Source: Candidatus Thalassarchaeum sp. (lineage in GTDB: Archaea > Thermoplasmatota > Poseidoniia > Poseidoniales > Thalassarchaeaceae). Taken from it: a DNA stretch of 64,000 nt. Positions 1 to 20,100 of the stretch are shown piece after piece (the first letter of the stretch is position 1; each line of letters begins with the position of its first letter). The stretch is taken from contig JBJLJN010000013.1 of NCBI GenBank assembly GCA_045559735.1, forward strand, positions 1,343 through 65,342. Direction: 5' to 3'. Below the pieces are notes generated by a model. The model was given only the letters and a program-made list of their open reading frames with translations. It was not told the DNA's origin and searched no databases. Both the position numbers and the translations under genes were made by a program.

Positions 1-77
1 AGCCAAGATGTAAGAGCCTCATCTGAGATGGAGCCGTTGACCACTCCCTCTACGAGGTCGCGGATGCGCTCGGACAT
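1..77 (-). CDS. 5' end of an unidentified CDS running off the window edge (26 codons visible)
   Basis: The minus-strand ATG at 77..75 overlaps the TGA stop (79..77) of the upstream 1523-aa ORF as ATGA. It reads MSERIRDLVEGVVNGSISDEALTSW.. to position 1. This is too short to assign a family. Confidence 0.35.
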   Translation of the reverse strand, partial: MSERIRDLVEGVVNGSISDEALTSW

Positions 78-3000
78 CACTCCTCCTCGCCTAGCTCCGC
101 TCGGACTTCTTCCATTGTCCGCCCCTGTTCGAGCATCCATTGGACCTCATCTCTAGCTGCATTGTCGAATCCGAAACCATCCAACTTGATTGCTCCATGC
201 TCACCGTCATCGCTGCCCTCAATGCGAGCGCGCACATCCTCTGCGGATTCATCGAAACTTGTTCCAGTAAGGACGGCCTTGTCCGAATCGGTGTCGTCGA
301 ATCTGTATCCCGAATCGTCAATCAAGATCTCATCGGTGCCCCTTCTCGGTTGCAGGAACATCGAGGCAGCAGCAGCGGCCAGAGACACAGCTGAGATAAC
401 CATAATCCAGAACAGGAATGAGGCACCTGGTCTGGACAGTGGATCCTCTCTGATGTTGAATAGTCCTGTTTCCTCCTCCTCTTCGGACTCCTCTTCAGAC
501 TCTTCTTCCTCTTCCCCTCCCTCTTCGCCGCCATCAGTCGAGCCCTGCTCGCACCCATATTGCTCGCCATCAGGAATTCCATTCTCATCAACATCTCCTG
601 AGTTCATCGAGAACACCGGTTGACGCATCACACTGGCTGCGAAAGCCGACTCCTCACCATCCAGTATGCAGTCCCCATCGGTGTCATTGGACTGAGGATT
701 ACCTCCCAGCTGATACTCCTCTAGGTTGTTTAGGCCATCCTCGTCGGGATCGAGCGACTGCTCGCTGAGTGCAGTACCTATGACGGCCGCAGAGTGCCGG
801 TTCAGGCCGTATTCGACCTCCCACTGATCCGGCAACAGGTCGCCGTCGGAGTCAGTTGTTGGATCCAATCTGTTCCAGTCCTCCTCAAAGGAGGAAGAGT
901 AGTCAGAGGCCAGTCCTTGGTGATGAATCAGAACACCCATCTCGCGATTTCTCAAAGCGGCGCTTGAGCCCCAGTTCATGCTTCCAACGAGCACGCTCGC
1001 GCCATCGATGATAGCTCCCTTGTTGTGTAGCTTCACGATGGTGCCGGAATAAGCCATCAGACGGGCCGTGACATCGAGTCCTTCGGTCTCGTTCCAGCCG
1101 GTGTTGAACATGTGGATGGCATCACGAATCTCCTCGTCCCACTCTGCATAGAATCCGTTAAGCATCAGTCGGATGCTCACGCCCCTCTGCGCTGCATCGT
1201 GCAGAGCGGCTATAATCGGGTTATCTCCGAAGCCCCAGTACCAGTCCAAGTCCAGATACTGGACAGACAACTCGATTGATTGCTGGGCCGATTCGATCAT
1301 CGCGACTATGCCTGTGACACAGTCATCGGGGCAGGTCAGGAGCTGTGCATCGAACGGCCCCTGATGATACTCGACGGGTGAAAGTTCACCATCGTGCCAT
1401 GGCTCCTCCATAGTCCAGTCGAATGTCGGTGCGTGCCAAGAGGAGTGAGGAGAGATGTGTAGATGCTGGGCGTTCTCATCCCATGCCATCCGTGACAGTA
1501 CTAACTCGGCAGCGACCTGAGAATTCAGTATCACCGACCACTCGCGGTTGCCGACCTCATCTGGAGGAACGCTGGTGTCCTTCCAGTTGCCTGAAGAGAT
1601 CCACACGCTGTCGGAATCCCTGACAGCTACCTTGCTGTGGATGTATGAGTAGGGCGAGCTGATTTGCGTAGGATCCTCCATCCAGAGCACATTCGCACCC
1701 GCATCGTGTAGTGTCTGCGCATGCCCTCTCTGGTTGTTCACTGTACTGCTACCATCGAGAATCCCTTCTTCGAGCAGAATCGTAACCTCTACGCCCTCAG
1801 CAATTGCTTCAAGAAGCGCTTGAGTCAGATCGGGGCTCATGAACTGGTAGATGTGTAGGTGGATGGAGTTTTCAGCCTCACCTATCCACTGCTTCAGGTC
1901 GTTGAATGCAGAGTCGGGACCGATTGAGGCAGAGGCCGTCGAGGCGGCCTCGGTAGTAAAGTGCCCCCCATCACAAAACGTCGAAGCGCCAATCCTAATC
2001 CACCTTTGCTCCCAGTCCGAACCACTGTCGGTGTCGGGGTAGTCTCCACACCCAGTGCCACGCATTAGAATGAGGCCAGGTGTCCCATCTCCTGGGACTG
2101 AAACCGCAGCGCCCTGCCAACCATCAATTTCGGCAATGCCACCTCCGAACACAATAGCATCAACTACCGTTCCATCAGGCGTCTTGAGTTGTAATGCGCT
2201 GCCAGAATCAACCAACCAGGGCATGTTGTTTAGGGCGACGTTACCATCCAATGCAGTGATGCCCCCATCTGCAAGGAGATTTGCAGGGTTCTCAGTCAGA
2301 ACTACAGAGCTCCCCGCATCGATAACCACATCACCAAAGGCGGAAATCCAGGGGGTGGTGGAGCGAATCCGCTCTATGGTCCAGCCTGCCAGACTAACCG
2401 GTTCATCTCCGATGTTGGTAAGCTCAAGCCAATCGTTGTCCCTGTCTGGGACCTCTGATGGCATGATGCGAGTGAACATCACATCGTACTCGCCGTCCCA
2501 TTCGGAGGGCTCTGCGGGAGGGTCCCACAGCCACAACATGTTATTGTCGTGCTTACCTGTGTCTTCGGCCACAAGGACCCTACCATCATCGAGCACAGCT
2601 AGATTGTCGGGCCCAGCGATTCGGTTGGCATCACACGATCCGGAGGAGTAAGTTCCACCAGCGATAACGGGTTCGATTCGAGTCACATCCCAGTCGTCTT
2701 CCACGGGCATCCTGTAGACTATCCCGCAACGGTTCTCGGATAGTCTGATGTCTCCCTGCGAGTCACTCATGTCATATCTGATATCTGACATAGCCAAATA
2801 CACATAGCCGGGCGCCTCGGAGTTGAAGACAACACCCTCCATCTTGTTCCACTCATCTGTGGCACCTATGGACCCGGCAGCCTTCCTTGATTCGAGGAAT
2901 GCAACCCTGTCGTCGGCTGCCGTTCCAACACCACCGTCTCCATTCAGATCTTCGTCTAGGATGCTCTCTGCCCAGTCGTTGATCTCCTCGTCGGAGATGT

Positions 3001-4648
3001 ACGAGTTCTCACCAGCAACGAAATCAGAAGTAGTGATTCCATCGTATTCGTCTATCCAAGCCTCAATTTGAGTATCGCTGGATGAAGCCAACTCAATCCA
3101 CTCAACGTCAAACCCAGTAGTAGCAGGATTGCTTCCTGAGTCCTGTGTGAGCCTAGCAGCATACAATGTACCTGACTCTAGGTCTCCCACGGTGTCTGCG
3201 ACGAATTTGAACAGCACCGTACCGTATTCGTCATCGGATAGGTAGACAGTCTTCTGATCCGGCATCACCTGAGCGTTCTCGTGTGAGAATCTGCCCAGCG
3301 AGAGCTGCTTGTCGAAGGACGGCGTAGGCGTATCAGGGTCTGTTATCTCGACGATCCATCCGTAGTCGTACGGATTGGGGTAATGGCCTAGATAGTCTGC
3401 CAGCTCTTGCTGGTCCGAGTGGTAGTGGTAACTAGGGTTGTTCCAGTTCACGGTGTCTGAGAAGTAAAGCTCCTCAGAGAGCAGAGGAGTTCCCCAAGGG
3501 CTGATTGAGCCGAAGCACAAAACCCAACCGCCATTCATTCCGCTGAGGTCCTGCATCATACCCCCTAGGACATCCCATTCCTGCGAGGCAGTATTCCACT
3601 GAATCAAGAGCTGACTAACGCCTGCAGGGCGACTCTCCCATGTCGTATATAGGTAGCCTCTGGTTCCTTGTGAGTTCAGAGGGACGAAGGCATTGAAGTC
3701 AGGCTTTTGACTGGTGAATAGAAGCTCACCATCATCGGCAGCATAGATTCCTCCTGCGACTCCCCCCTCGGAAAGTGCATCACCGCTTTGCACGAGAACC
3801 TGATAATCTCCGTGAGACACCCTGACGCCATGCCAGACATCCCACTCGCTACTGGACAGATCTAGTTCAGGAACCACGGCGGGAAGAGCGTTCCAATCGA
3901 CTCCGTTTACTACGCCGACAGTGGCATCGTAGTAATTCTCGTCAGGGTGCATTGCATTGACGAAGAGATTCCCGAGCGAATTCACGTGCAGCCCTGTGAC
4001 CTCGGCCCCGCTCGGCATCATCATCACCCGAGTGAGATCAGAAGGAGTTCTTTCTAACTCCCCCTCGCCTCCACCCGTTCCTTCGGAGTTTTCGGCTCCG
4101 GGAGTATTCTCCTCGGAGTCGACCCAATCCGCAGATGAATCGGCAGTTGGAATCTTCGAGATTCCGTTGGACGCCTCACCTGTCGTTACTGTGTGGATGA
4201 TGGCCCCACTGGAATCCTTTAGGTAAAGAGTCTCTCCAGCGTTATTCAGGCGGAGAGTCCCGACTTCATTCTCGGCGATTACCGCGTAACTCCCCGAGGC
4301 AATAACGAAAGACTCGTCCAGATTGGAGAAGCCAACCCAGGTTGAAGCATCGATTGGATGTACCCAACCACCGATATCCTCCAAGGTCCAATTCTGTAGG
4401 CTCATTCCGGATATCCCGGAATTGTGTAACTCGACCCATTCTCCGTTTGGGAAGATTCCTTGGTCAGAGCCATCCGCATTTGGCATCATCTCGTTGATGC
4501 ATACTCCTGTGCACTCAGTAGAACGGCTAACTGCATCTGATGTAACTCCCGAATCCCTCAGGCCCGACTCCACCGCAGGATATAGCGACATCAGCAACAA
4601 CATCGCTAGAGCGAGAGCCGCAGCACCAGCTTCCTCACGCTCCTGCAT
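77..4648 (-). CDS. Surface-anchored multidomain phosphoesterase: lamin-tail domain (LTD) - PhoX-like (DUF839) propeller - LTD - two PLD-family HKD domains - TSP3-like Ca-binding repeats - poly-Glu tract - TM anchor - cytoplasmic tail
   Basis: Hydrophobic N-terminus (AAALALAMLLLMSLYPAV). LTD signatures: GEWVELHNSG..LNNAGETLYLKD and NDWLELTNIGDEPVSLAGWTIER. PhoX/DUF839 signatures: ISPWGTPLLSEE, GRFSHENAQVMPDQKTVYLSDDEYGTVLFKFV, GTLYAARL, GPDNLAVLDDGRVLVAEDTG. Two HxKxxxxD motifs: YIHSKVAVRDSDSVWISSGNW and KLHNKGAIIDGASVLVGSMNW. DSDGDLLPDQWE / DPDEDGLNNLEE / DTDGDCILDGEE repeats. C-proximal helix FLFWIMVISAVSLAAAAASMF followed by a ~100-aa charged tail. Confidence 0.8.
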   Translation of the reverse strand: MQEREEAGAAALALAMLLLMSLYPAVESGLRDSGVTSDAVSRSTECTGVCINEMMPNADGSDQGIFPNGEWVELHNSGISGMSLQNWTLEDIGGWVHPIDASTWVGFSNLDESFVIASGSYAVIAENEVGTLRLNNAGETLYLKDSSGAIIHTVTTGEASNGISKIPTADSSADWVDSEENTPGAENSEGTGGGEGELERTPSDLTRVMMMPSGAEVTGLHVNSLGNLFVNAMHPDENYYDATVGVVNGVDWNALPAVVPELDLSSSEWDVWHGVRVSHGDYQVLVQSGDALSEGGVAGGIYAADDGELLFTSQKPDFNAFVPLNSQGTRGYLYTTWESRPAGVSQLLIQWNTASQEWDVLGGMMQDLSGMNGGWVLCFGSISPWGTPLLSEELYFSDTVNWNNPSYHYHSDQQELADYLGHYPNPYDYGWIVEITDPDTPTPSFDKQLSLGRFSHENAQVMPDQKTVYLSDDEYGTVLFKFVADTVGDLESGTLYAARLTQDSGSNPATTGFDVEWIELASSSDTQIEAWIDEYDGITTSDFVAGENSYISDEEINDWAESILDEDLNGDGGVGTAADDRVAFLESRKAAGSIGATDEWNKMEGVVFNSEAPGYVYLAMSDIRYDMSDSQGDIRLSENRCGIVYRMPVEDDWDVTRIEPVIAGGTYSSGSCDANRIAGPDNLAVLDDGRVLVAEDTGKHDNNMLWLWDPPAEPSEWDGEYDVMFTRIMPSEVPDRDNDWLELTNIGDEPVSLAGWTIERIRSTTPWISAFGDVVIDAGSSVVLTENPANLLADGGITALDGNVALNNMPWLVDSGSALQLKTPDGTVVDAIVFGGGIAEIDGWQGAAVSVPGDGTPGLILMRGTGCGDYPDTDSGSDWEQRWIRIGASTFCDGGHFTTEAASTASASIGPDSAFNDLKQWIGEAENSIHLHIYQFMSPDLTQALLEAIAEGVEVTILLEEGILDGSSTVNNQRGHAQTLHDAGANVLWMEDPTQISSPYSYIHSKVAVRDSDSVWISSGNWKDTSVPPDEVGNREWSVILNSQVAAELVLSRMAWDENAQHLHISPHSSWHAPTFDWTMEEPWHDGELSPVEYHQGPFDAQLLTCPDDCVTGIVAMIESAQQSIELSVQYLDLDWYWGFGDNPIIAALHDAAQRGVSIRLMLNGFYAEWDEEIRDAIHMFNTGWNETEGLDVTARLMAYSGTIVKLHNKGAIIDGASVLVGSMNWGSSAALRNREMGVLIHHQGLASDYSSSFEEDWNRLDPTTDSDGDLLPDQWEVEYGLNRHSAAVIGTALSEQSLDPDEDGLNNLEEYQLGGNPQSNDTDGDCILDGEESAFAASVMRQPVFSMNSGDVDENGIPDGEQYGCEQGSTDGGEEGGEEEEESEEESEEEEETGLFNIREDPLSRPGASFLFWIMVISAVSLAAAAASMFLQPRRGTDEILIDDSGYRFDDTDSDKAVLTGTSFDESAEDVRARIEGSDDGEHGAIKLDGFGFDNAARDEVQWMLEQGRTMEEVRAELGEEE

Positions 4649-4721: not shown

Positions 4722-7421
4722 CTATTCTTCAGCTTCTTCGGAGCCACGAGTTCCCATCGAACCGTACACAATCAGGCCAATCCCGGCAACATATAACAGT
4801 GCAATCACAATGTGTACGTAAACGAGAGGAGCACCGGCATCGCCACCGAAGTTTGTCCACCCCATTGGGCCTAGATTGTCAGTAACGCCACCCACAAACG
4901 CCTCAGCCGTATCGTCTGGGACATCACTGAAAGTGTGAATCTCAAACACTGGCATCACATCATTTGAGTCGAAATCCGGATTCATCGAACCGGGCCCGCG
5001 AAGATCGAGATAGAAGGCAGCAGTAACCTTCCCGTACATTGGCATATTTGTAATGGGCTCGACCTTCATGTCGATATCGACTCCGAGGTAAACCGGGAGA
5101 GCACCCGGCATAGCATCGACAAAGCTCTCAGAACCAATCAGCTTACCTTGAATTTGAGTGCTGGAAGGGTCAAGTGTCACAGTATGCTCAACCATGTCTA
5201 TTCCCTTGTAGGTAGTCCCAGATCCTACCACGGACTGAGCTATCGCATACCCTATTATGTTCACACTGAACGGGTTCTCAGCATCTGCAATATCGCCGAT
5301 GGTACCTGCGACTATTGTGTCATCGTTACCGACATGGTCGGAGAGCAGACCTAGGGCAGCATCCTCACGGTGAGGGGCCCTCCATGGGAGGTACTCTGTC
5401 ATGCCGTAAATTTGACCTTCCTCGCACTCGAGATCATTTCCAAGGAAGTTACCTCCCGCATCGTAGTCGTAGTCGCAAAGACCATCACCGTTGGAGTTGA
5501 TGTATCCTTGAGCTAGACGCTGTCGAACATTGTCTCCAGCAGTGCTCATCATGTACACAGAACGGTCGCCTGTACTGATTCCTCCAGAGCCATAGTAGGT
5601 GTCATTAGTCTCAAGACTCACCCAAGGGAAGAATCCGAAGTATGCATTGACAGCATCATTCCAACCATACAGCCAGTTGCTAACTGGTTGGGTAGTGAAT
5701 GGCTCGTTGCCAGTTACGAAGTTCAATAGCACCGGCATCACGGTGTCGAAGTAAAAGTTGCCCACCCAATCCCTGAGGGCATGGGCTGCATCTTCAGGTA
5801 TGCCATACAGAGATGCCACATAGGCGTCATCCCAGACATGCTGGTTACCCTCTGAATCCGGCAGAGACATTCCTGAGAGTTCACCATACATGAATGAGGC
5901 CGGGAAGGACGACTTCAGACCGATTTCGGGATCATTGAGGATGAAGTTTGATTGCTCCATTGACAGGTCTGCCATACCAGCGAATTGTTCCCTGTTGAGT
6001 CCTATTGGGATGTACTCGCCCTGTAGTGGGTCTGCAGCTCCGAATGCGGTGTGCCACCAATCCTCGGCGTTCATTGTACCCTGTCCTCCAATCAGTATCT
6101 TCTCGAAATCCCTTGGCGGGCCGGTTACTCCTAGGCCGACCCATGGCTCGACATAGTCAGCTAGGTCAGCGATTGTCAGAAGGCCTAGGTTGTAGGTAAT
6201 CATAGCATCATAGTAACTGCCTGACTGTAGAGGCAGCAGCAGACCGATGACCATGCCAGGAAGTGGTATTCCGCTGATTTCGAATGAGGTAAGCATGCCA
6301 ACGCTCTCGTTGAATAGTAGATTCTCCAGTGTAAGCGGATCATTCACCATGATTCCGCTGACCTCGTGGAATCTTTCTTTGAGCTGTGGGGTCTGGTTGT
6401 TAATCTCGGCCCCCCCGCCGTGTTCCACGAACTTGCTCGCCGCTAGCCCGAAGACAGTTGCATCCACAGATGCCATTGTTGCAGCATCGGAGCCGGCGTA
6501 GCCATACAATGCTGCCCGAGTCTGAGTAACTTGACCTCCATCAGGAGCGCCCATTCCAGCAACGATGACCGGACCCAGATCGCAAGTAAGGGCTATGCAA
6601 TTTCCAGTTGAAGGATCAACTGCATCGTAAAGGATGCTGTCTGCAAATGGGAAGAACATCTGAGTGTTGTTCAGTATGTCGCTCGTGCTGGCATCGGGCC
6701 CCGAGAAGACTCCAGAGAGGATCCCTGAAGGCGCCAGTATGGAGGCATTGGCTTCGTCCATCCCCGTAGCCTGTAGACTCATTGAGAACGCATCCACCAT
6801 TCCCTCAATATCCTCAGACGCCCAGATACTGGGGGCCCTGTTGGACAAATCGAAATCAATCATACCTGCCGCAAACATTGCTTTGGCAAAGGTCTCGCCA
6901 TAGAATATTCCACCACTATCGCCACCCATGCCACCTATCCTCTGAGTATTCCAAAGAATATTCACATTGGTGATGTTAGTTTCGCCTGAAACAGAGGCGT
7001 GCTCAACGCCCTCATTGTCAGTCCATTTACACTCAGCACACCACTCGAAGACGTCGTACTCAGAGTAGGTTACAGTTTCCGCCTCGTAATCGAAGCCGAG
7101 AATTTCCTTGGTAGTTGTGACATTGTAGATGAAGGGGCCCATCATGGTGAAGGCATCAGCCGGATTTTCTGAATCCAAGGCCGATGCATCTGTTATCGAA
7201 TTAGCGAAGTAGACTCTCGGAGCAGTAGATATATGCCACTCCTCGTCGTAGTCCACTGAGTAGTTCTCATTACCATCCTCGTCATAACCGTCGTATAGTC
7301 CTGTAACTCCTTCCGCAACTGTGCCTTCGATTATACCATCTACGACACCCGTCACACCGATTCCTATGTTCACAAGTAGGAGCAAAACCCCTACACCCAA
7401 TGCTGTTTTCTGTCTATCCAT
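4722..7421 (-). CDS. Membrane protein with a TM helix at each end and a large ectodomain; candidate CD36 / scavenger-receptor class B family homologue with a large insertion
   Basis: The long ORF (4722..7496) is trimmed to the Met of MDRQKTALGVGVLLLLVNIGIGV (ATG 7421..7419), which gives an N-terminal TM helix. A second TM helix (VYVHIVIALLYVAGIGLIVYG) lies 12 aa from the C-terminus. Three collinear CD36-like motif blocks are described in the findings. The coding call is solid; the family call is provisional. Confidence 0.55.
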   Translation of the reverse strand: MDRQKTALGVGVLLLLVNIGIGVTGVVDGIIEGTVAEGVTGLYDGYDEDGNENYSVDYDEEWHISTAPRVYFANSITDASALDSENPADAFTMMGPFIYNVTTTKEILGFDYEAETVTYSEYDVFEWCAECKWTDNEGVEHASVSGETNITNVNILWNTQRIGGMGGDSGGIFYGETFAKAMFAAGMIDFDLSNRAPSIWASEDIEGMVDAFSMSLQATGMDEANASILAPSGILSGVFSGPDASTSDILNNTQMFFPFADSILYDAVDPSTGNCIALTCDLGPVIVAGMGAPDGGQVTQTRAALYGYAGSDAATMASVDATVFGLAASKFVEHGGGAEINNQTPQLKERFHEVSGIMVNDPLTLENLLFNESVGMLTSFEISGIPLPGMVIGLLLPLQSGSYYDAMITYNLGLLTIADLADYVEPWVGLGVTGPPRDFEKILIGGQGTMNAEDWWHTAFGAADPLQGEYIPIGLNREQFAGMADLSMEQSNFILNDPEIGLKSSFPASFMYGELSGMSLPDSEGNQHVWDDAYVASLYGIPEDAAHALRDWVGNFYFDTVMPVLLNFVTGNEPFTTQPVSNWLYGWNDAVNAYFGFFPWVSLETNDTYYGSGGISTGDRSVYMMSTAGDNVRQRLAQGYINSNGDGLCDYDYDAGGNFLGNDLECEEGQIYGMTEYLPWRAPHREDAALGLLSDHVGNDDTIVAGTIGDIADAENPFSVNIIGYAIAQSVVGSGTTYKGIDMVEHTVTLDPSSTQIQGKLIGSESFVDAMPGALPVYLGVDIDMKVEPITNMPMYGKVTAAFYLDLRGPGSMNPDFDSNDVMPVFEIHTFSDVPDDTAEAFVGGVTDNLGPMGWTNFGGDAGAPLVYVHIVIALLYVAGIGLIVYGSMGTRGSEEAEE

Positions 7422-7503
7422 GCTGCCGCACCTAGAGTCCTCAGCAGGGTTGAGCGGATAAGCGTTACAGTAGCAAAAAAGACCCCTCTGAATCACAACT
7501 CAA

Positions 7504-9159
7504 TCAGATGAATCCGAAACCATCGAACTCGCGCGCGAACGTGTACAGCATTATTGGGACCAGAATAATCCCCATCGCATGGCTTCTTCTGATGCCAATC
7601 CGAGGGGGCATCAGACCCATCGCGGTCCCAATGATTAGCACCCCAAGTCCAATCCATCCAGTGGACAGCCAGACCAATATGGCGATGAACCCAGTCACTG
7701 AAATTACCAATGTCCGTAAAGGGACCAACTCATGTACCTTCAGCATGCCCTTGCCAACCTTAATCATCACAGGAACCGCGAATAGCCCGGAAGCGATTGT
7801 AATACCTAGTAGTCGTACGAAATCCGCAGGCGGATCGACTGCGTTCCACATGTCGATTGGATACATCATGTTGAGAGCTAGTGCGGCTCCAGATCTAGGC
7901 CGTCCGACCATGTACAGGAAGCCCAGAACCATGACTGTAACAGCGGTGTTCACTGAAGAAAGAATGGCAATAATTTCTAGGTCCTGCTGCTGATTCTGCG
8001 CCCCGAGGTCGAGGTCAGGACTGACTCCTGCCTCAGACAGGACCTCCTCGAACATCCCCCTCTCTTCTTCTGAGAGGTCATCTAGACCCTCGATGTCTGT
8101 AGTAGTTCCACTAGGTGTGAAGCCCGGCTGAGTTCCATGCTCAAAGTCCGCGGGGATGTAGTTGGGGTCAGTCAGCCTGCCCCAGAAGTTCCGCATGCTC
8201 ATCACCACAACAGTCGCTTGAGCAGCAGTCATACCGGGAAGGATAGCCATCACTGACGAGACGATAGCAGACAGAAACGTCGGTACTGCAAGTGGCCTCA
8301 TCGGCGGCATCTCCCAGTTCGGCTCTTGCGGCGGTATCTCTGAGGTCGTAACATAGATGTCAATCAGGTTCGCGATACCGAATAATCCGGCTAGGCCCGG
8401 GAACAGCAGCGTCGCTGACGGCATGCCGATAGGTGATCTACCTGGCAGCTCGAACACAGCCCAGCCATAGAATCCTGTCAGCAGGAAGAAGAATGTAGCA
8501 GCGAGTATGCCTGCTACCCTAGAGCTATCGCCGAGTCGTAGGTCGATGTTCTCCCACTTACGATGAATTCTAAACTTCCAAATTGGTATATTGAACTCTA
8601 TTTTTCGTGGTAGTGGTACTACCAGCCTGCTGGTGATCCTCTGACTCCACTCGGGCCAAGATAGGCGTGTAGTTTCAGTCAGAATCAGGAATATCGAGAT
8701 GGTCAGTAACAGCCAGGGCAGGACATCTCGACTGGACTCGTAGAGACCTAAACCCGGATCCTCACCGAATAGAAGTCTAGCCACAATAAGCAGTGGAATG
8801 GACATCAGCATGCCCATTTGCGAACCTCGCGCTGAATATGCCACTCCTTGTGCGGCTTGACCGGAAATAAGCATCCTATGACCCGGCAGCAAGGCTAGGG
8901 CCATGTTATCGTCCGGAGCCCCAACCAATGCACTTGGGATGTAATTGAGGAAGGTGTGAACCGTACCACAGGCGACGATGATTCCCGCCACCGCATCAAG
9001 AGGGATGCCGATTGCTACTGCGACGGGGGAAAGACTGAGAGCGATTAGGGCGACATTGTTTACGTGAAATCCTGGAATCAGTCCGGTCAGGCAACCCAGC
9101 ATGATGCCGAACAAGTATGATGCAATGAGCCAACCGAAATCTAGCAGCACACCGTCCAT
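7504..9159 (-). CDS. Polytopic membrane protein, TctA/DUF112-like transporter family
   Basis: 551 aa and highly hydrophobic throughout. The N-terminal pattern LGCLTGLIPGFHVNNVALIALSL..IPSALVGAPDDNMALALLPGHRMLISGQAAQGVAYSARGSQMG matches the TctA/DUF112 signature (G..PG.., LPGH.M...G). It has an acidic cytoplasmic insertion (DIEGLDDLSEEERGMFEEV). Confidence 0.55.
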   Translation of the reverse strand: MDGVLLDFGWLIASYLFGIMLGCLTGLIPGFHVNNVALIALSLSPVAVAIGIPLDAVAGIIVACGTVHTFLNYIPSALVGAPDDNMALALLPGHRMLISGQAAQGVAYSARGSQMGMLMSIPLLIVARLLFGEDPGLGLYESSRDVLPWLLLTISIFLILTETTRLSWPEWSQRITSRLVVPLPRKIEFNIPIWKFRIHRKWENIDLRLGDSSRVAGILAATFFFLLTGFYGWAVFELPGRSPIGMPSATLLFPGLAGLFGIANLIDIYVTTSEIPPQEPNWEMPPMRPLAVPTFLSAIVSSVMAILPGMTAAQATVVVMSMRNFWGRLTDPNYIPADFEHGTQPGFTPSGTTTDIEGLDDLSEEERGMFEEVLSEAGVSPDLDLGAQNQQQDLEIIAILSSVNTAVTVMVLGFLYMVGRPRSGAALALNMMYPIDMWNAVDPPADFVRLLGITIASGLFAVPVMIKVGKGMLKVHELVPLRTLVISVTGFIAILVWLSTGWIGLGVLIIGTAMGLMPPRIGIRRSHAMGIILVPIMLYTFAREFDGFGFI

Positions 9160-9167
9160 GCAACCAC

Positions 9168-10727
9168 CTAAGGTCTGATATCAATGCAGAACTGCGCGGA
9201 ATTTTCTATCGAGTCCTCGGTCATAGTCAGCCGACCAACCCATTCAATCGGCTCTCCAATCTGCACCTGCTGACTCGACTCGGTACCGTCGCCCAGCAGA
9301 CAGACTCTCTCTTCGCTACCGGAGCGCTCAATCCACTGATCTCCATCTTCATCCATCACAGCCTCTCCGGTAATCTGAACCTTCCAGCCGATATTCCATT
9401 TCCAAGAGTTGTAACCATCACCCCAATTGAGGACAGTTGGTTCTGGAATCTCCCCTAGAAGCCATGAGCGAGCCTCGAGCACTACTCTACCGTCCGCGAC
9501 CGACCAAAGCACTGTAGCATTGAATCGAATCTCCTGCCCCGGCTCAATCCATTCCGAGTGCTCTCCGACAAGATGCAGTCTCAGCTTGGTATCGCGGTCG
9601 TAGTATCCTTCACCGTCCCCAACGTATCCCTTGTCATAATCAGGAGAAATCGGGTCAGTTACCCAACCCTCGAACTGGTAACTGTCCCCCACATATGAGA
9701 AGGGATCCTCTGCAATGTCCTTTAGTGGAATAATATCATCTCCGAACTGGCCCGGAGGAAATTGTAATGACTCGACATAGCCTCGGTCCAAACAGACCTC
9801 GGCTTCATTGTTTGACCAGGCTAGTCTACCTCCCCAGTCACCACTCTGTCCGACTATGTCGGATTCTAGATCCTCGGGTGAGGGCAGCAGGCACAGTCTG
9901 TCGTTAGGAGAATCACCCTCAATCCACCAATCCTCGCCGTCACTTGCAATGGTGCCATCGATCATCACCAACTTGCCGACCTCATAGGTCAGAGTGTACG
10001 GCTCGACCTCCCAGCTGAGGTATAGAACCTCACCCTCTCCACCAGGCAGAACCTCAACCTCGGTGGCCTGCACCAGCAGCCTCCAGCGGTACGATCGCTC
10101 GTCGAACTGCAACCATCCGCTTGCTCTGACATGACTTCCGGCCTCAACCCATTCCATTACCCTGCCCTCGATCTGTATGTACAGTAGGTGATCGGCTCCT
10201 CCATATGCCTGATTGTCCATCAGGTACAACGAGTGGTAGGTCACATCAGGGGCGAGCGACTCGCTTAGCCAACCATCGATAGTGAGAGATTGGTTAGCGA
10301 AGGATTCTGGATTCCGACCAACCTCGACCAACTTGGTCTCAGTGAACTCGATTACCTCGTCCTTAGTCACTATTGCACCATATCCATTTGATTGTAGCCA
10401 TATCCTACCATTCCATTCGGACACCTCTCCCTCTACGGTAACTACTGTTCCGATCGGAGGAACATCGTTAGTCCAGTCGACATTCCAGCGCACCTTCGCA
10501 ACAGAGTGCCCTCCAATTTCTTGGACTTGCAAGTCTATCCGGTCAGCGCCCTCTCCGTACGGGTCGCGAACATATCCTGTAAGCACACCCTCAATCTTCA
10601 CGGTCTCCCTAGGGTAGTTCCGTATCTCGTCTATTTCTATCATATCAGGCTCCCTTATCACAGCGTAGAAGTTCATCGCCGAGACAAGAAGAAGCGATGT
10701 GAAGAACATCACCCAAAGCTTCGCCAT
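9168..10727 (-). CDS. Membrane-anchored/secreted protein with internally duplicated beta-barrel (OB-fold-like) modules, function unknown
   Basis: The ORF is trimmed to MAKLWVMFFTSLLLVSAM (ATG 10727..10725), a signal/anchor sequence. Clear internal repeats: DGTIASDGEDWWIEGDSPNDRLCLLPSPED vs TGEAVMDEDGDQWIERSGSEERVCLLGDG. Also IEGVLTGYV..TVVTVEGEVSEWNGRIWLQ vs YQFEGWVTDP... Confidence 0.6.
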   Translation of the reverse strand: MAKLWVMFFTSLLLVSAMNFYAVIREPDMIEIDEIRNYPRETVKIEGVLTGYVRDPYGEGADRIDLQVQEIGGHSVAKVRWNVDWTNDVPPIGTVVTVEGEVSEWNGRIWLQSNGYGAIVTKDEVIEFTETKLVEVGRNPESFANQSLTIDGWLSESLAPDVTYHSLYLMDNQAYGGADHLLYIQIEGRVMEWVEAGSHVRASGWLQFDERSYRWRLLVQATEVEVLPGGEGEVLYLSWEVEPYTLTYEVGKLVMIDGTIASDGEDWWIEGDSPNDRLCLLPSPEDLESDIVGQSGDWGGRLAWSNNEAEVCLDRGYVESLQFPPGQFGDDIIPLKDIAEDPFSYVGDSYQFEGWVTDPISPDYDKGYVGDGEGYYDRDTKLRLHLVGEHSEWIEPGQEIRFNATVLWSVADGRVVLEARSWLLGEIPEPTVLNWGDGYNSWKWNIGWKVQITGEAVMDEDGDQWIERSGSEERVCLLGDGTESSQQVQIGEPIEWVGRLTMTEDSIENSAQFCIDIRP

Positions 10728-10829
10728 GCACACACACGGAAGGACACCGTGCTTCAAGGTTGAGAGGGCTCGTCAAGCATCTCCGTAGCGAAGATAACTT
10801 CATTTCACAGAGTGCACGAGACGAGTTAG

Positions 10830-10903
10830 GGACCCGTAGCTCAGTTGGTTAGAGCGCTCGGCTCATAACCGAGTGGTCATCGGTTCAAATCCGGTCGGGT
10901 CCA
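10830..10903 (+). tRNA. tRNA with CAU anticodon (elongator tRNA-Met or archaeal tRNA-Ile2)
   Basis: Hand-folded cloverleaf of 74 nt. Acceptor stem GGACCCG/CGGGTCC with discriminator A. D arm GCTC-AGTTGGTTA-GAGC. Anticodon arm CTCGG-CTCATAA-CCGAG (anticodon CAT). Variable loop TGGTC. T arm ATCGG-TTCAAAT-CCGGT. No encoded CCA. G1:C72 argues against an archaeal initiator. Confidence 0.9.
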
Positions 10904-10991
10904 CTCCGCCTACTTCACAGGCTCAGCAACCGGCTTCTAGTGGTCCAGTTCGTGCGAAGCCTCAAATACGGTCTCAGGGGGCCTCGATGTG

Positions 10992-11924
10992 ATGACAAAA
11001 GCGCGTTCGGTCCGGCCGGCAGTAATGATTCTGGCTGTATATTTCCTAAGCACTTGGATGGGTGCAGCGGCAGTTCAGGCCCAAGGGCCTGTTCCTGACA
11101 TCACTCTCAGCTGCCAGCAACCGCAGCCCATTGATGTGTATCCTGGCGCCACAAGGACCACCATAATCGACTGCACGCTGGAGAATCCGACTATCCATCA
11201 GGAGAAGGTAAACGTCCAGATTCAGTCCGGTTCTCTTGCAGCCGCCGGCCCTGCTTCCATGACAGTCGGATCGCAGTCTGATGTGTCATTCCAAGTCGTC
11301 GCCAGAGCTGATCTGAGAATGCCCGAAGGCTCACAGATTATCTCAATCACAGCCGAGGTCGTTCAGGCCGATGGAATTACTTGGGTCGGGACTCCAACCA
11401 CTTACAAGGTTCTGGCAGTGATTAGGCAGTTCAGCCGCCTTAGAGTCGCCTCCGAGGTCGCATTCCTACAACTCAGGCCCAAGGTTGACTACATGCTGAC
11501 CTTCGATGTCTACAACGACGGCAACGCGATGGATAGATTCAATGTCGGCGTCGAGAACTACGGCGACCTAAATGACGAGGGCTTCCAACTCAGCATCCCT
11601 CTGGTCTCAGTCGAGATAGAGTCGATGGCTCCTGCCGAGAAGATATACGTGCAGATGAGAACTCCAAAGAACCAAGGCTGGACGGACAAATACTTCTCTT
11701 TAATGTTCAAGGCCACTTCTGAATATTCGGTCAGAACTGAAGGTATTCCGAATTACCAGATACAGACGATGACGATATACATCAGAGGCGTCTATCTGCC
11801 TGGATTCGAGTTAGTGGGCACTATGATGATCACTACTCTCGCAGCGGCAGCAATAGCAGGTAGGTACCGCGACGATGACGATGATCCGGACGAACCCAGA
11901 GAGCTCGACGCGCGTCTCTTCTGA
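10992..11924 (+). CDS. Exported surface protein (CARDB-like beta-sandwich repeats) with a PGF-CTERM-like C-terminal anchor
   Basis: Signal peptide MTKARSVRPAVMILAVYFLSTWMGAAAVQAQG. CARDB-like strings (LTFDVYNDGNAMDRFNVGVENYG). C-terminus LPGFELVGTMMITTLAAAAIAGRYR followed by an acidic tail. The ORF track starts at GTG 10989; ATG at 10992 is preferred. Confidence 0.7.
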   Translation: MTKARSVRPAVMILAVYFLSTWMGAAAVQAQGPVPDITLSCQQPQPIDVYPGATRTTIIDCTLENPTIHQEKVNVQIQSGSLAAAGPASMTVGSQSDVSFQVVARADLRMPEGSQIISITAEVVQADGITWVGTPTTYKVLAVIRQFSRLRVASEVAFLQLRPKVDYMLTFDVYNDGNAMDRFNVGVENYGDLNDEGFQLSIPLVSVEIESMAPAEKIYVQMRTPKNQGWTDKYFSLMFKATSEYSVRTEGIPNYQIQTMTIYIRGVYLPGFELVGTMMITTLAAAAIAGRYRDDDDDPDEPRELDARLF

Positions 11925-11997: not shown

Positions 11998-13209
11998 ATG
12001 AGTGACGGGGGTCTGCTACAGAAGGCGATAGAGCAGCAGTCCGGTTCTCAAGACGAACCCGTACTCATGGCTGACGTGCAACCTGCCGCTTCTACAGGAT
12101 TTATTTCCGCCCCGATTCGTTCAGGTGCCGGCTTAGCCGTATTAGCTCTAATCTCGTCTTTAATAGTCTCAAGACCAAGTGTCCAGAGTGAGTATTCATT
12201 TTTGGGAATCATCCCCCTTCTAATTTTCGCAATCTCGTTCTATCTTGTGTGGAATGCAATCGGAAGGAAGCAGACTGCTGCAATAGCCGTAGTCTATCTC
12301 CTGCTCGCAGCTTCACCTTATCTGGTCATGAGCCTCACCGCAGGAGAGATTACAGTAACTGACTCTGAACTTTCAGACGATTCAACCACCATCACTTTGA
12401 CCATCAGAGAATCTGGCGCAATCCTAGGGTCATCTGTGGATTCTGCAGATGTTTCAATCACCTACGATGGTGACGAAGTATACTCGGAATCGATGGCCTT
12501 CTCAATTAACAGAGAGGATGGGTACAGTAAGTATGGAGAAATAGATCTGACTGTAGTAGATTGGTACGACGGAAACGCAGCCGACGATGCTGAGTATGTC
12601 GTGACCGTCGATGTTGGCAGTTCTTCTGACTCTATGCAACTGCAGTCTCGGCATCTACAGAGGACCGTTGATGACGTGAAAGGGGAGACCTTAGGGGCTA
12701 TTGGTCTAGGCAACGACTGCGGAGAATCCAAGGACTCTTGTATAATCGGTGTTGCTCTGAAATCATGGTCCGGTTTGGATGCACTCGGAGACAATCCACC
12801 AGGGGCTCTTCCGTTTGCAGACTATACGGTACAAGCCAACATGTATTTTGACTCCAGTGTTGTTATCTCTTACCCTCTAGTCACAGTTGTGAATGGGGTC
12901 GCTGAGTGGGATTCAGGCAACGGAGAGTACGGAGGAGGTAGCGCTCTGTTGGCCGACGACGGTTCCGAACTTCCTCTGCCTGGTTCGGTTGAGTCATTCG
13001 AACTCAATACCAAGTACGTTCCAATCGAGGACTGGGCGGTAAACGACTACGGATGCTATCACTTCACAGTCGAGGTCACGCAGACCTCACCTTGGTCCGA
13101 TGGCGCGACCTTGTCTCAAACCTCATTCTACGAGTACACTGAGGAAGGCGGCGAGACTGGTGGCAACCCTACTAACGAGGCATGGACAAGGGTTACTAGT
13201 TGTGACTAG
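11998..13209 (+). CDS. Membrane protein (N-terminal TM helices plus acidic extracellular domain), function unknown
   Basis: 403-aa ORF with ATG at 11998, preceded by GGGGAG 5-10 nt upstream. Hydrophobic helices GAGLAVLALISSLIVS, LGIIPLLIFAISFYLVW and AAIAVVYLLLAASPYLVMSL. The remainder is acidic and Ser/Asp-rich. Confidence 0.65.
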   Translation: MSDGGLLQKAIEQQSGSQDEPVLMADVQPAASTGFISAPIRSGAGLAVLALISSLIVSRPSVQSEYSFLGIIPLLIFAISFYLVWNAIGRKQTAAIAVVYLLLAASPYLVMSLTAGEITVTDSELSDDSTTITLTIRESGAILGSSVDSADVSITYDGDEVYSESMAFSINREDGYSKYGEIDLTVVDWYDGNAADDAEYVVTVDVGSSSDSMQLQSRHLQRTVDDVKGETLGAIGLGNDCGESKDSCIIGVALKSWSGLDALGDNPPGALPFADYTVQANMYFDSSVVISYPLVTVVNGVAEWDSGNGEYGGGSALLADDGSELPLPGSVESFELNTKYVPIEDWAVNDYGCYHFTVEVTQTSPWSDGATLSQTSFYEYTEEGGETGGNPTNEAWTRVTSCD

Positions 13210-17011: not shown

Positions 17012-17125
17012 CGATTTCTTATGCCGATTCACGGAGCTTGAATTAGCCAACCATTCTACGAATGGTTATAACATCCAGTCAAATCGGCGCGACGCTGGCC
17101 TTTAGGTCGAACACGGTGATTGACG

Positions 17126-20100
17126 ATGAATGAGAATGATACCGCGGCTGAAACTGCGCCTTCCCAGACGGGAATCGCTTCCGCCCCAGCGGTGCTGGTA
17201 ACACTACTAGCACTGTTCTTCGGGGCCGATTATGTCGCGAATGGAGTTATGGAAAATGATGGATATATGCAAGTCCTGATTCTGCCCGCCGTAGCCACAC
17301 TGGCTGCTGCGTTAGGCAGAATGGGTGCCTTTACTTCATTCGGCCAACTCTCCAATTACCGCAGCGCTATTGTGATCTTTGGATTCATTGCTGCCGCGGC
17401 AACCATCTCTCTTGCCTACAATCTGTTTGAAAGCGTTGGCAAGCTGGGAGCATTTACCTTCGCTTTGGTCGGTATTTCGACGTATGTACTGACCCGTTCA
17501 GAGAGAAGGGAAGAATCCAGTATCCTGCTTTCCGTGGTCGTTGGATTCCACTTCGCCGTGTCCCACGCCGCTAACTCGGTGTTGGATTCATCGGACTGGG
17601 CAGGTGCGGCACATGACTTGCTGGATGCCGAGAGGGCCGCAATGGCATCTATCTTCTTTGCATTCTGGGCTACATCAATCGTGGCTGGCGTTATCATCAC
17701 TACTTTGATGAGGCATAGATTGGATTTAGCGGGCTCTGGAGCCTTCGGAAAATCCTTATCGCCATCCGGCCGAGTTATGATGGCAACCCTGACGACCATC
17801 CTGTTGGTCCAAGCGATACCACTGGTTTGGCTAGGGCAACTATCCGGAGTCCAAGAGTACGCCAATCATGAGTATCTTGGCTCTGTTTGGGCGTTGTTCA
17901 CTACTGTGATAGTGCTCTTCGTTACGCTTTGCTACTGTGAGAGGTGGAACGTCATCGGCGCCCTAGTCTCTGTGAACTGGCTGCTGTACACTGTGGGACA
18001 TCTGCAAGAGATAGGGAACGAGTTCCCAAGCTTCCTATCTGGCGAGGATGCGATGAGCACGTTCTCTTGGTTCTTCATTGGTTTCTGGCTCAACGTCGCT
18101 GCAATCATGATCGCCTCCCGTGGCTACTTCGGGGACGTTTCTCCGAGGCACGAACCGAGTCAGGCGCGAATTTGGTGGAGCAACAACTCCTATTCAGTCA
18201 TGGTCGCCCTAGCGCTTTTCGTCGCATTCGCCGTCAGGACTGGATGGAACGTACTGCCTGCGATGAACGCCTCGGCCACCGGCCTGTGGGATATGACCGG
18301 TGGCTCCGACCCTTGGTACATGAAGCGAGTCGTCGATTACATCGTAGCTGAGAGGAGCCACTACATCTTCGACCACGACAGAGCCTATCCGATGGGGGCG
18401 ATTAACCCCCGTCCACCTCTCTTTTCATGGTCACTCGCTCTAGGGGGAATTGGACTATCTTGGCTTCTTGAGATGCCGGTAGACGAGGCGACTTGGTGGA
18501 GCGTCGCTACCATGCCAGCGGTCTTTGGTGCGCTGATTGTACTACCAGTGGCTGCAATCGCAAAGAACGTACACAGTAAGGGAGCAGGTATCTTGGCGGC
18601 TTGGCTGATTGCCCTGATGCCCGGACATATCTCGCATGCAACATTCGGGCTCGCGGACCACGACTCCTTTGCACTCCTTTTCCTCTCTATGGCATTCTAC
18701 TACTGGGTCAGGGCGATAGAAAATCTAGGCACGGACAAACTCTTCCTGAATCCGAGCTCCAGCCCGCTGTATCTGCTGGCAGGAATTAGAGAGACCTGGC
18801 ACAGGAATCCACTTGCGATGGCTTTCGCCACAATGTCTGGCATCTCTTTTGCTACTGTCGCTCTTGGTTGGAAGGGATTCGTATACGGCCCAGGTATTCT
18901 TTTCCTCGCTTTCTCGGGACAGATTGTTCTCAACATGTTCCGCAAGAGGGACAGCCTGCCTCTTACGTCCGTAGCTTTACAGATGCTACTCACTTCCTTC
19001 TTCATACCACTCCCATTCTACATGTGGCCCGGACTCAACCTCGTATTCGATCCCAGTGGATTCCAGCCGATGTTCTATATCATCGGATTCACCATAGCTC
19101 TGGGATGGGTCGCATCCTCCTTCAGAGACAAGCCTTGGCTACTGGTATTAGGCACAGGAGGCCTGTTGATTGGAGGAATACTGATGATACTGTATATCCT
19201 ACAGGAGCTGGAGATCTACAACGGCTGGGATATCCTATTCACAGGTGGATTCTATTTCTCAAAGAACAAGATTTTCGGCACCATCGGAGAGGCTCAGGCG
19301 CCAAGCAGAGGAGTTCTATTTGCTTCCTATGGTCCAGTGGTAGCTCTGATTGCTGTAGGCTGTGCCTTCGTCCTGATGTGGCGTGGCGCCCGCAGAGGAC
19401 GTCAGAGCCACTTACTATTGGGCCTCTGGGTAGTTATTTCCACTTACATGGCATGGTCGGCTGGCAGATTCATCTTCAACGCGACTCCTGCAATGGCGGT
19501 TGTTGGAGGAATAGGCTTAGCTATGCTCTGGGAAGGGGCCAATTTCACCTCATTTGTCAAGGAGTGGCGTCGCTCGGGTATAGGAACTCCGAGAACTAGG
19601 TTCAGGTCGGCCTGGCCAGCGGCCAAGCGCAATCCATCAATCCCCGCTATTCTAGTCATCCTGATGATGGTTGCCTCACAGCATGCCACCTATGGGATTG
19701 ACTCGGGAATTCCTCGAGGAGAGTCTTCTGCGTCAGATGTCGATCAGACGATTCATGACATAGCACCTGATTTCCTCAGAGCCGAGCTACTTGGCCTATC
19801 AGTACTGAAGAGCGAGGGATACAATCCAGAATCTGAGATGTGGTACATGGGAACATTCGGACCTGGATTCAACAGCGGCTCTTGGAATCTGGCCTACGAT
19901 TGGCTGTCTGAACAGGACTCGGATGTGGGCTTCAGCGAGAGGCCAGCCTTCGTTTCTTGGTGGGACTACGGATTCCAGGCGCTGGCCCAAGGCCAGCACC
20001 CCACTGTGGCTGACAATTTCCAGTCAGGAATCCCCCATAGCGGAGGAATGCTGCTTTCCAACAGTCAGGAGGACACCCTGTCCTTGTTCATCACCACGCT

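Follow-up and report, generated by a model that had tools for sequence, protein, structure and literature searches.

A 64-kb stretch of DNA from Candidatus Thalassarchaeum sp., an archaeon of the order Poseidoniales (Marine Group II), was analysed through its open reading frames (ORFs) and their translations (assembly GCA_045559735.1, contig JBJLJN010000013.1; the whole stretch is called the window below, and all positions refer to it). On its minus strand, at 4722..7421, lies a gene encoding a CD36-like protein of 899 amino acids (aa), with its stop codon at 4722..4724 and an ATG start codon at 7421. Use of an alternative GTG start codon at 7496 would give an ORF of 924 aa (4722..7496, minus strand); homologues of the protein begin at the methionine equivalent to the ATG at 7421, and an AGGTG sequence is found ~11 nt upstream of that ATG. 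CD36 models run against all of the other ORFs gave no match, so that the 64-kb window holds no second copy of the gene. The comparisons described below used three sets of family members: a diverse set of 44 sequences, a 9-sequence set (A3), and 20 close homologues with at least 63% identity.

The protein has the hairpin topology typical of CD36, with a transmembrane helix at each end, tails of 5 and 12 aa, and a large ectodomain in between. The N-terminal anchor (aa 6-28, 7338..7406, minus strand) has a Kyte-Doolittle peak of >2.0, is modelled by AlphaFold as part of a helix spanning residues 3-41, and is aligned to the N-terminal anchor of CD36 by both hidden Markov models (HMMs) and hhalign. 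Only five residues (MDRQK) precede it on the cytoplasmic side. The C-terminal anchor (aa 866-887, 4761..4826, minus strand; Kyte-Doolittle peak 2.49, AlphaFold helix 864-898) is aligned to that of CD36 by hhalign and is followed by an acidic cytoplasmic tail of 12 residues (4725..4760, minus strand). The ectodomain is acidic (126 D+E versus 28 K+R), and the protein carries six cysteines, at positions 128, 131, 275, 280, 649, and 666. An earlier note on this DNA, made from the letters alone, had described an 899-aa ORF with one transmembrane helix at each end and an acidic ectodomain, and that description holds, with hydropathy and AlphaFold agreeing on the two helices. The directly predicted arrangement is one in which both terminal helices anchor the protein in the cytoplasmic membrane and leave only very short tails on the cytoplasmic side.

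The resemblance to CD36 is distributed over two flanks, both encoded on the minus strand, that together make up the β-barrel. The N-terminal flank (aa 45-156, 6954..7289), defined by HMM, hhalign, and AlphaFold strands, contains block 1 (aa 69-127, 7041..7217). The C-terminal flank (aa 574-860, 4842..5702), defined by hhalign and HMM, contains block 2 (aa 574-631, 5529..5702) and block 3 (aa 774-842, 4896..5102). The earlier note had matched these three blocks to human CD36/SR-BI. Translation of the coordinates it gave returned exactly the sequences that it quoted, and the CD36 strings that it cited do occur in human CD36, for which we used a copy 100% identical to PDB 5lgd_A (472 aa). It had also put the excess between blocks 1 and 2 at ~390 aa and the distance between blocks 2 and 3 at ~200 aa, as in CD36. 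The measured values bear this out: block 1 is separated from block 2 by 505 aa, compared with 109 aa in CD36 (an excess of 396 aa), and the distance from block 2 to block 3 is 202 aa (G586-E788), compared with 193 aa (G181-E374). Its view that the internal gap of block 2 is similar in the two proteins held, whereas the figures of 31 and 26 aa did not; we measured 28 and 23 aa (CD36 185 to 209).

An hhalign comparison of the C-terminal half reproduced the residue pairings of the earlier note, placing PFTTQPVSNWLYGWNDA with FQVRTLRELLWGYRDP, DIDMKVEPITN with CD36 YLDIEPITG, and VMPVFEIHTFSDVPDDTAEAF with the 21-residue segment of CD36. The register of this last pair is thus upheld by profile methods, whereas its use as standalone proof is not. 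The order of the motifs is canonical, with the long N-terminal strands followed by an LLWGY-type linker and a C-terminal EPxTG / PV..E block. We infer that the conserved blocks correspond in position to motifs M1, M2, M6, and M17 of the eukaryotic family (PMC10715195). A full-length local hhalign alignment had placed CD36 LLWGY on RAALYGY (aa 302-308, inside the insert described below); this placement was rejected. NWLYGW (aa 582-587) was chosen instead, as it is supported alike by the HMM matches, by the alignment of the half-protein, and by the short and Asgard archaeal forms (see below). Within block 2, we also observed an N-x-T motif, N606-D-T608 (nt 5598..5606), that is at least 90% conserved in the 44-sequence alignment and invariant in A3. 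It pairs in the profile alignment with CD36 NNT (aa 205-207), which we take to be a glycosylation site, and could be either a conserved glycosylation site or a structural motif. Between blocks 2 and 3, the alignments and AlphaFold identify a subgroup-specific β-hairpin insert with the cysteine pair C649 and C666 (aa 640-675, 5397..5504, minus strand; strands 648-653, 659-665, and 671-675), which is invariant in the close homologues and absent from distant members such as P0126.

Profile comparisons placed this resemblance in both flanks of the barrel. HMMs of CD36 from which all Marine Group II sequences had been kept out matched the protein in three ordered stretches (aa 11-131, 549-623, and 764-862) that correspond to blocks 1, 2, and 3, with a score of 30.6 bits over aa 11-131. 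When the Marine Group II alignment was compared by hhalign with five or six eukaryotic CD36 sequences, probabilities of 95-99% were obtained (E 3e-18 to 4e-10). Because column-reversed templates used as controls gave <5%, the match lies well beyond chance. The same alignment scored 99.8% against the Asgard family and 99.6% against the short archaeal form. Each flank also matched on its own after removal of the transmembrane helices: the N-terminal flank gave 95.7% (E 8.9e-9), and the C-terminal flank (aa 574-848 against human CD36 169-436) gave 96.2% (E 2.6e-9). Identity to human CD36 in the hhalign alignments is ~17-18%. Against a single CD36 sequence, hhalign returned E 0.069, which is not significant, although the alignment was in the register of the earlier note; a family alignment is therefore needed on the template side.

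Relatives of the protein also tie the family to CD36. The Pfam CD36 model (PF01130) was matched by 20/20 close homologues, with a best E of 1.5e-7, and distant full-length members exceeded the Pfam threshold, each in two stretches (P0126, 70.5 bits; P0132, 68.1 bits; P0141, 66.7 bits). A search of 1.84 billion representative proteins with the family profile yielded only 139 clusters, and its weak tail consisted of true CD36 proteins, among them a coral LIMP-2-like protein (457 bits to the Pfam CD36 model) and a two-domain protein (798 bits), together with forms of ~820 aa in which the CD36 match is split into two stretches.

Structure prediction with the 20 close homologues gave an unusable model (predicted local distance difference test [pLDDT] 42.9), and a good model was obtained once distant representatives had been added to make 44 diverse sequences (pLDDT 81.5; predicted template modelling score 0.73). 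It consists of a long N-terminal helix, β-strands at 64-153 (including long strands in the N-terminal flank at 64-76, 91-111, and 116-127), a helical region at 157-570, β-strands at 575-833, a helix at 836-850, and the C-terminal transmembrane helix. The earlier note had suggested comparing a predicted structure with LIMP-2 and CD36, and in a Foldseek search of the PDB, LIMP-2 and CD36 took all of the 13 top places (probability 1.00, E 5e-5 to 3e-3). Beyond these entries, the search of the PDB gave no significant match; ranks 14 and 16-18 were LmcA of Mycobacterium smegmatis (7shw, 7n3v), with a nonsignificant E of 0.065-0.21 and a probability of 0.85-0.97. The alignments to LIMP-2 and CD36 most likely lie in the C-terminal flank (aa 574-860). 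The asymmetric antiparallel β-barrel fold of CD36 is directly predicted by the model for the ectodomain. The canonical three-helix apex bundle (α4, α5, and α7) is not present in it, a helical domain of ~417 residues being found instead; eukaryotic members of >500 aa deviate in the same way, so that this does not speak against membership.

Several observations weigh against this assignment. The window protein by itself scores 18.8 bits against PF01130 (E 6.3e-4), below the gathering threshold of 26.5, and the match spans only aa 91-131 (profile positions 74-114). Sequence searches of the PDB with phmmer and with a 20-sequence profile gave no CD36 entry, the best hit being a spurious aminotransferase (E 0.3). 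The final 21-residue pair of block 3 contains four identities and alone proves nothing. Foldseek template modelling scores are modest, at 0.36-0.40 per target with a root mean square deviation of ~8 Å, and the alignments cover at most 350 columns, so that they cannot span the insert and represent one flank only. Metazoan CD36 ectodomains carry the disulfides C243-C311, C272-C333, and C313-C322; this pattern is absent here, and the Cys-rich segment of CD36 has no counterpart in the alignment. Disulfide conservation is, for its part, handled under a Metazoa-specific heading in the eukaryotic survey (PMC10715195), and these disulfides may therefore not define the whole family. The Pfam comparison suggested in the earlier note thus fell short for the lone protein and succeeded for the family members and in profile-profile form. 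Its central claim, that this is an archaeal homologue of CD36/SR-B/LIMP-2 with a large insertion between blocks 1 and 2, is confirmed by separate lines of evidence, from Pfam, profiles, structure, and origin. Judged by homology and architecture, the gene almost certainly encodes a true, though highly diverged, archaeal representative of the CD36/SR-B/LIMP-2 superfamily.

When one genome for each GTDB species was scanned with the 9-sequence alignment, relatives were found in 174 reference genomes, and the best 80 of the 174 loci were all from Poseidoniales. Close homologues are named as Candidatus Thalassarchaeaceae, Poseidoniales, or Thermoplasmatota. One of them, P0011, lies on a contig of 235 kb and is listed by NCBI as “Chloroflexi bacterium,” probably because it was binned or labelled incorrectly. 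The window also carries a gene for CDP-archaeol synthase, and this, together with the Poseidoniales genomes that hold the best 80 of the 174 loci, indicates that the contig and its host are archaeal. In a neighbour-joining tree built on score distances with split-based bootstraps (a crude distance tree from saturated data), the Marine Group II sequences formed a clade with 100% support and the Asgard sequences one with 98.5%, and a split supported at 97.5% separated Asgard and eukaryotic proteins from Marine Group II, the short archaeal form, and a PorA-like paralogue. The earlier note had looked to phylogeny to separate ancient homology from horizontal transfer. In these sequence comparisons, the family appears as a deep clade of its own, with 100% support, and the tree argues against contamination or a recent transfer from eukaryotes.

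The two flanks are separated by an apex expansion of ~417 residues (aa 157-573, 5703..6953, minus strand), almost all of which is α-helical in the AlphaFold model. Its hhalign bounds are set by VNILW (aa 153-157), which corresponds to CD36 TVLNLAV (136-142), and by PFTTQ (aa 574), which corresponds to CD36 FQVRT (170), so that, at the membrane-distal apex, it stands in for the α4/α5 segment of ~30 residues in CD36. Model confidence is highest in the insert (pLDDT ~90), which contains two invariant cysteines, C275 and C280. It has no Pfam match and no significant match in the PDB or among viral structures (BFVD). As Foldseek aligns locally and gave no other significant match, the insert has no recognisable relative in the PDB, and the 417-residue domain would be a new structural module on an old scaffold, without known relative. 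Helical multi-helix expansions that are domain orphans have been described at α4/α5 in eukaryotic SR-B proteins of >500 aa, where they arose independently (Boohar et al. 2023, PMC10715195). An HMM built from the insert of Marine Group II recognised only the shorter insert of a 730-aa relative, P0154. A common origin of the inserts was considered and not retained, as this HMM gave no signal on the Asgard or amoebal inserts, which are thus either independent in origin or diverged past detection. The amoebal example is an 819-aa CD36 protein of the amoebozoan Luapelamoeba hula (P0250, EukProt), which also has an apex insert, as in the published eukaryotic expansions.

The protein can be compared, from sequence and model, with three groups of relatives. 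It shares with the eukaryotic CD36/SR-B proteins (CD36, SR-BI, and LIMP-2; PF01130) the hairpin topology, the short tails, the β-barrel fold, and the order of the motifs, and with their long members (>500 aa) a multi-helix expansion at α4/α5 without known domain homology (PMC10715195); it differs from them in its archaeal host, its low identity, its subthreshold Pfam score, and its lack of the metazoan disulfides. The second group is an Asgard family of CD36-domain proteins of ~800-900 aa that we observed in Promethearchaeota, Hermodarchaeota, and Hodarchaeota (44 of the 46 proteins listed belong to it; those that bear a name are all “hypothetical”). Like the window protein, these are archaeal and have two flanks with a large insert at the same position, without detectable sequence similarity between the inserts. 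They are far closer to eukaryotic CD36, with 220-280 bits against Pfam and an hhalign E of 1e-80, and fall on the eukaryotic side of the tree. Three of their loci (L083 7001-9511, L084 7001-9562, and L085 7001-9505) lie on contigs of 504, 430, and 72 kb, and because the Asgard contigs also carry genes for Arf-family GTPases and ribosomal proteins, they look genuinely Asgard.

The third group comprises the actinobacterial DUF3068 or “PorA” proteins (PF11271), such as LmcA and PgfA (MSMEG_0317), which are likewise prokaryotic and extracytoplasmic and supply the next-best Foldseek match. They show limited structural homology to CD36 and are implicated in the trafficking of lipids (trehalose monomycolate [TMM] and lipoglycan) across the envelope; for PgfA, interactions with MmpL3 and with a TMM analogue have been described (PMC9678360). 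PF11271 does not match the window protein, and LmcA lacks the apex expansion. Some archaeal CD36-like proteins match both PF01130 and PF11271. One is a short protein of 522 aa, P0245, encoded by an archaeon (locus L081, 10001-11569, plus strand), which passes the Pfam thresholds for both CD36 and PorA/DUF3068 (36.2 bits for PF11271). At 5701-7365 (minus strand) of the same locus, 4 kb away and beside mevalonate-pathway genes, lies a 554-aa paralogue scoring 140.7 bits on PF11271; Pilin_N, Nre, and an HMG-CoA synthase/thiolase/DUF35 trio are encoded on this contig as well. DUF3068 has been described as exclusive to actinobacteria (PMC9678360).

The most recent family-wide survey that we found covers eukaryotes only and traces the family to the last eukaryotic common ancestor (PMC10715195). 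Our search turned up no paper on archaeal CD36 homologues, whether from Asgard, Marine Group II, or other archaea, and an Asgard structural-modelling paper makes no mention of CD36, LIMP, or scavenger receptors. Automated annotation has already tagged PF01130 on many archaeal relatives, and one NCBI record reads “CD36 family protein [Candidatus Thalassarchaeum sp.].” The statement in the earlier note that the family is generally regarded as eukaryotic, which would make an archaeal member unexpected, therefore needs qualification: it fits the lack of an archaeal paper in our search, whereas the published DUF3068 relative (PMC9678360) and the existing database tags speak against it.

In animals, receptors of the CD36 type play central parts in innate immunity, in the biology of lysosomes, and in the uptake of lipids. 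Eukaryotic SR-B proteins have a conserved barrel with a tunnel, and in CD36, SR-BI, and LIMP-2, lipids pass through this barrel tunnel to the membrane while the apex senses ligand (PMC10715195). By analogy with these proteins and with mycobacterial LmcA and PgfA, the best overall explanation for the archaeal protein is that it probably forms a conduit linking cell surface and membrane, along which a hydrophobic ligand moves. A ligand of hydrophobic or amphipathic nature would be captured by the enlarged apex on the outside of the cell and then moved by the barrel between the surface layer and the membrane's outer leaflet. The most plausible cargo would be food lipids, whether long-chain fatty acids or others, that the cell takes up. 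On the same analogy, a role in handling lipids has the balance slightly in its favour. The device for lipid uptake or export that the earlier note suggested is likewise a hypothesis by analogy. Fatty-acid degradation is encoded in all Poseidoniales genera (PMC6461757), and for that reason the most attractive reading is one of import, with fatty acids or lipids as the substrate; as to direction, import rather than export is a tentative and somewhat doubtful choice. Marine Group II archaea, which abound worldwide and are as yet uncultured, are predicted consumers of fatty acids, and a CD36-like surface protein is a concrete, testable candidate for how hydrophobic substrates could reach their membrane.

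Gene order around the CD36-like gene was counted in the best 80 of the 174 related loci. The common arrangement in Poseidoniales is a divergent gene for a choice-of-anchor T protein, the CD36-like gene, an Acyl_transf_3 gene on the same strand, and a convergent gene for an M60-like peptidase. The choice-of-anchor T surface protein (NF041740) was present in 65/80 loci and is the most consistently linked upstream gene; in the window, it is encoded as the divergent neighbour at 10989..11924 on the plus strand (263 bits). The Acyl_transf_3 (HGSNAT-like) membrane acyltransferase was found downstream, on the same strand as the CD36-like gene, in 67/80 loci (for example, at 10742-11842, plus strand, in L016), and it directly adjoins the CD36-like gene wherever the PLD/PhoX gene described next is absent. 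The window itself stops before the acyltransferase. This enzyme may be a functional partner in surface acylation, or the association may merely reflect inherited gene order.

Both sides of the CD36-like gene are interrupted by insertions in part of the genomes. Immediately upstream in the window, on the same strand, lie genes for a TctA-like membrane transporter of 551 aa (7504..9159, minus strand) and a 529-aa protein with a weak OB-fold match (9168..10757, minus strand). This pair is found in only 36-38/80 loci; in the others for which upstream sequence is available, the CD36-like gene abuts the divergent choice-of-anchor T gene. Downstream, at 77..4648 (minus strand), a gene encodes a 1523-aa protein with two lamin-tail (LTD) domains, a PhoX alkaline phosphatase domain, two PLD-like domains, and a C-terminal transmembrane segment; it is a variable insertion between the CD36-like and acyltransferase genes, present in ~35/80 loci. 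A further point that weighs against a role in lipid uptake is that no lipid-metabolism gene is consistently adjacent in the 80 loci, and that the conserved neighbours fit envelope biogenesis equally well. The Asgard loci and that of the short-form archaeon share no partner gene with Marine Group II, their neighbours being unrelated. The gene context thus points to cell-surface functions generally and not to a specific partner.

These results can be read in other ways. The main rival, which we consider unlikely, is one of outward traffic, in which the same fold carries lipids or lipid-linked intermediates of the cell itself for biogenesis of the envelope or surface layer, as LmcA and PgfA do. 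LmcA is indeed the next-best structural match, PgfA acts in lipid trafficking in the direction of export, and the gene is widespread (174 reference genomes) and single-copy in the window, as would suit such a function. The conserved neighbours also have surface functions (choice-of-anchor T in 65/80 loci and Acyl_transf_3, on the same strand, in 67/80), and in 19 of these loci the CDP-archaeol synthase gene lies ~7.5 kb away. Synteny within one order is, however, weak evidence, and adjacency is broken by the OB-fold and TctA-like genes on one side and by the PLD/PhoX gene on the other. No flippase or MmpL-like partner gene was seen nearby, and an apex this huge and this conserved fits the capture of an external ligand better.

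That same apex could be taken further, to suggest that the protein is a surface receptor or adhesin whose 417 residues bind a protein, glycan, particle, or virus, with the barrel serving mainly as a stalk. LIMP-2 binds β-glucocerebrosidase, and the ligands of CD36 include thrombospondin and PfEMP1. Ligand recognition in the family takes place at the apex, which has expanded independently in many eukaryotic lineages; here, no other part of the protein is as conserved as the insert or modelled with as much confidence, and in some genomes, genes for large secreted hydrolases adjoin that of the protein. We nevertheless hold this to be quite improbable, since no known binding domain resembles the insert (in comparisons with Pfam, the PDB, insert HMMs, or viral structures) and the barrel motifs M1, M2, and M17 have been kept across a very large evolutionary distance, which suggests that the barrel itself is functional. 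Finally, the subthreshold Pfam score of the lone protein and its identity of only ~17-18% to human CD36 might indicate that the resemblance is coincidental, and a eukaryotic contaminant or recent acquisition could be imagined. This explanation is effectively refuted: the reversed controls failed, three regions match independently and in the same order, the only significant structural matches are to the CD36 family, the flanking genes are archaeal within a neighbourhood kept in 80 Poseidoniales genomes, and the proteins form a 100%-supported clade outside the group of Asgard and eukaryotic sequences.

For the superfamily as a whole, a wider scenario can be drawn, which we regard as rather doubtful in its entirety. 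The CD36 superfamily would not be a eukaryotic invention but an old prokaryotic fold for handling lipids in the envelope, with a Marine Group II branch, an Asgard branch, and a short branch that lies beside a DUF3068 paralogue. The Marine Group II protein would be the missing gate for the uptake of algal fatty acids and lipids, and the Asgard branch would be the ancestor of eukaryotic SR-B. If this were true, a protein with a unique apex would allow the most abundant archaea of the surface ocean to feed on algal fatty acids and lipids. Apart from this scenario, the conserved archaeal branch, taken with the much more eukaryote-like Asgard branch, pushes the history of the fold back into prokaryotes and bears on where the eukaryotic SR-B receptors came from.

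Further genes in the window encode other products. The 1523-aa LTD, PhoX, and PLD protein could be an extracellular scavenger of phosphoesters, nucleic acids, or phospholipids. A tRNA-Met gene (10830..10904, plus strand) precedes the choice-of-anchor T gene, which is followed at 11998..13209 by a gene for a 403-aa protein without an assigned function. At 17120..26620, on the plus strand, a 3166-aa ORF combines an STT3/AglB oligosaccharyltransferase domain (aa 367-793) with a very long extracellular region containing CarboxypepD_reg.

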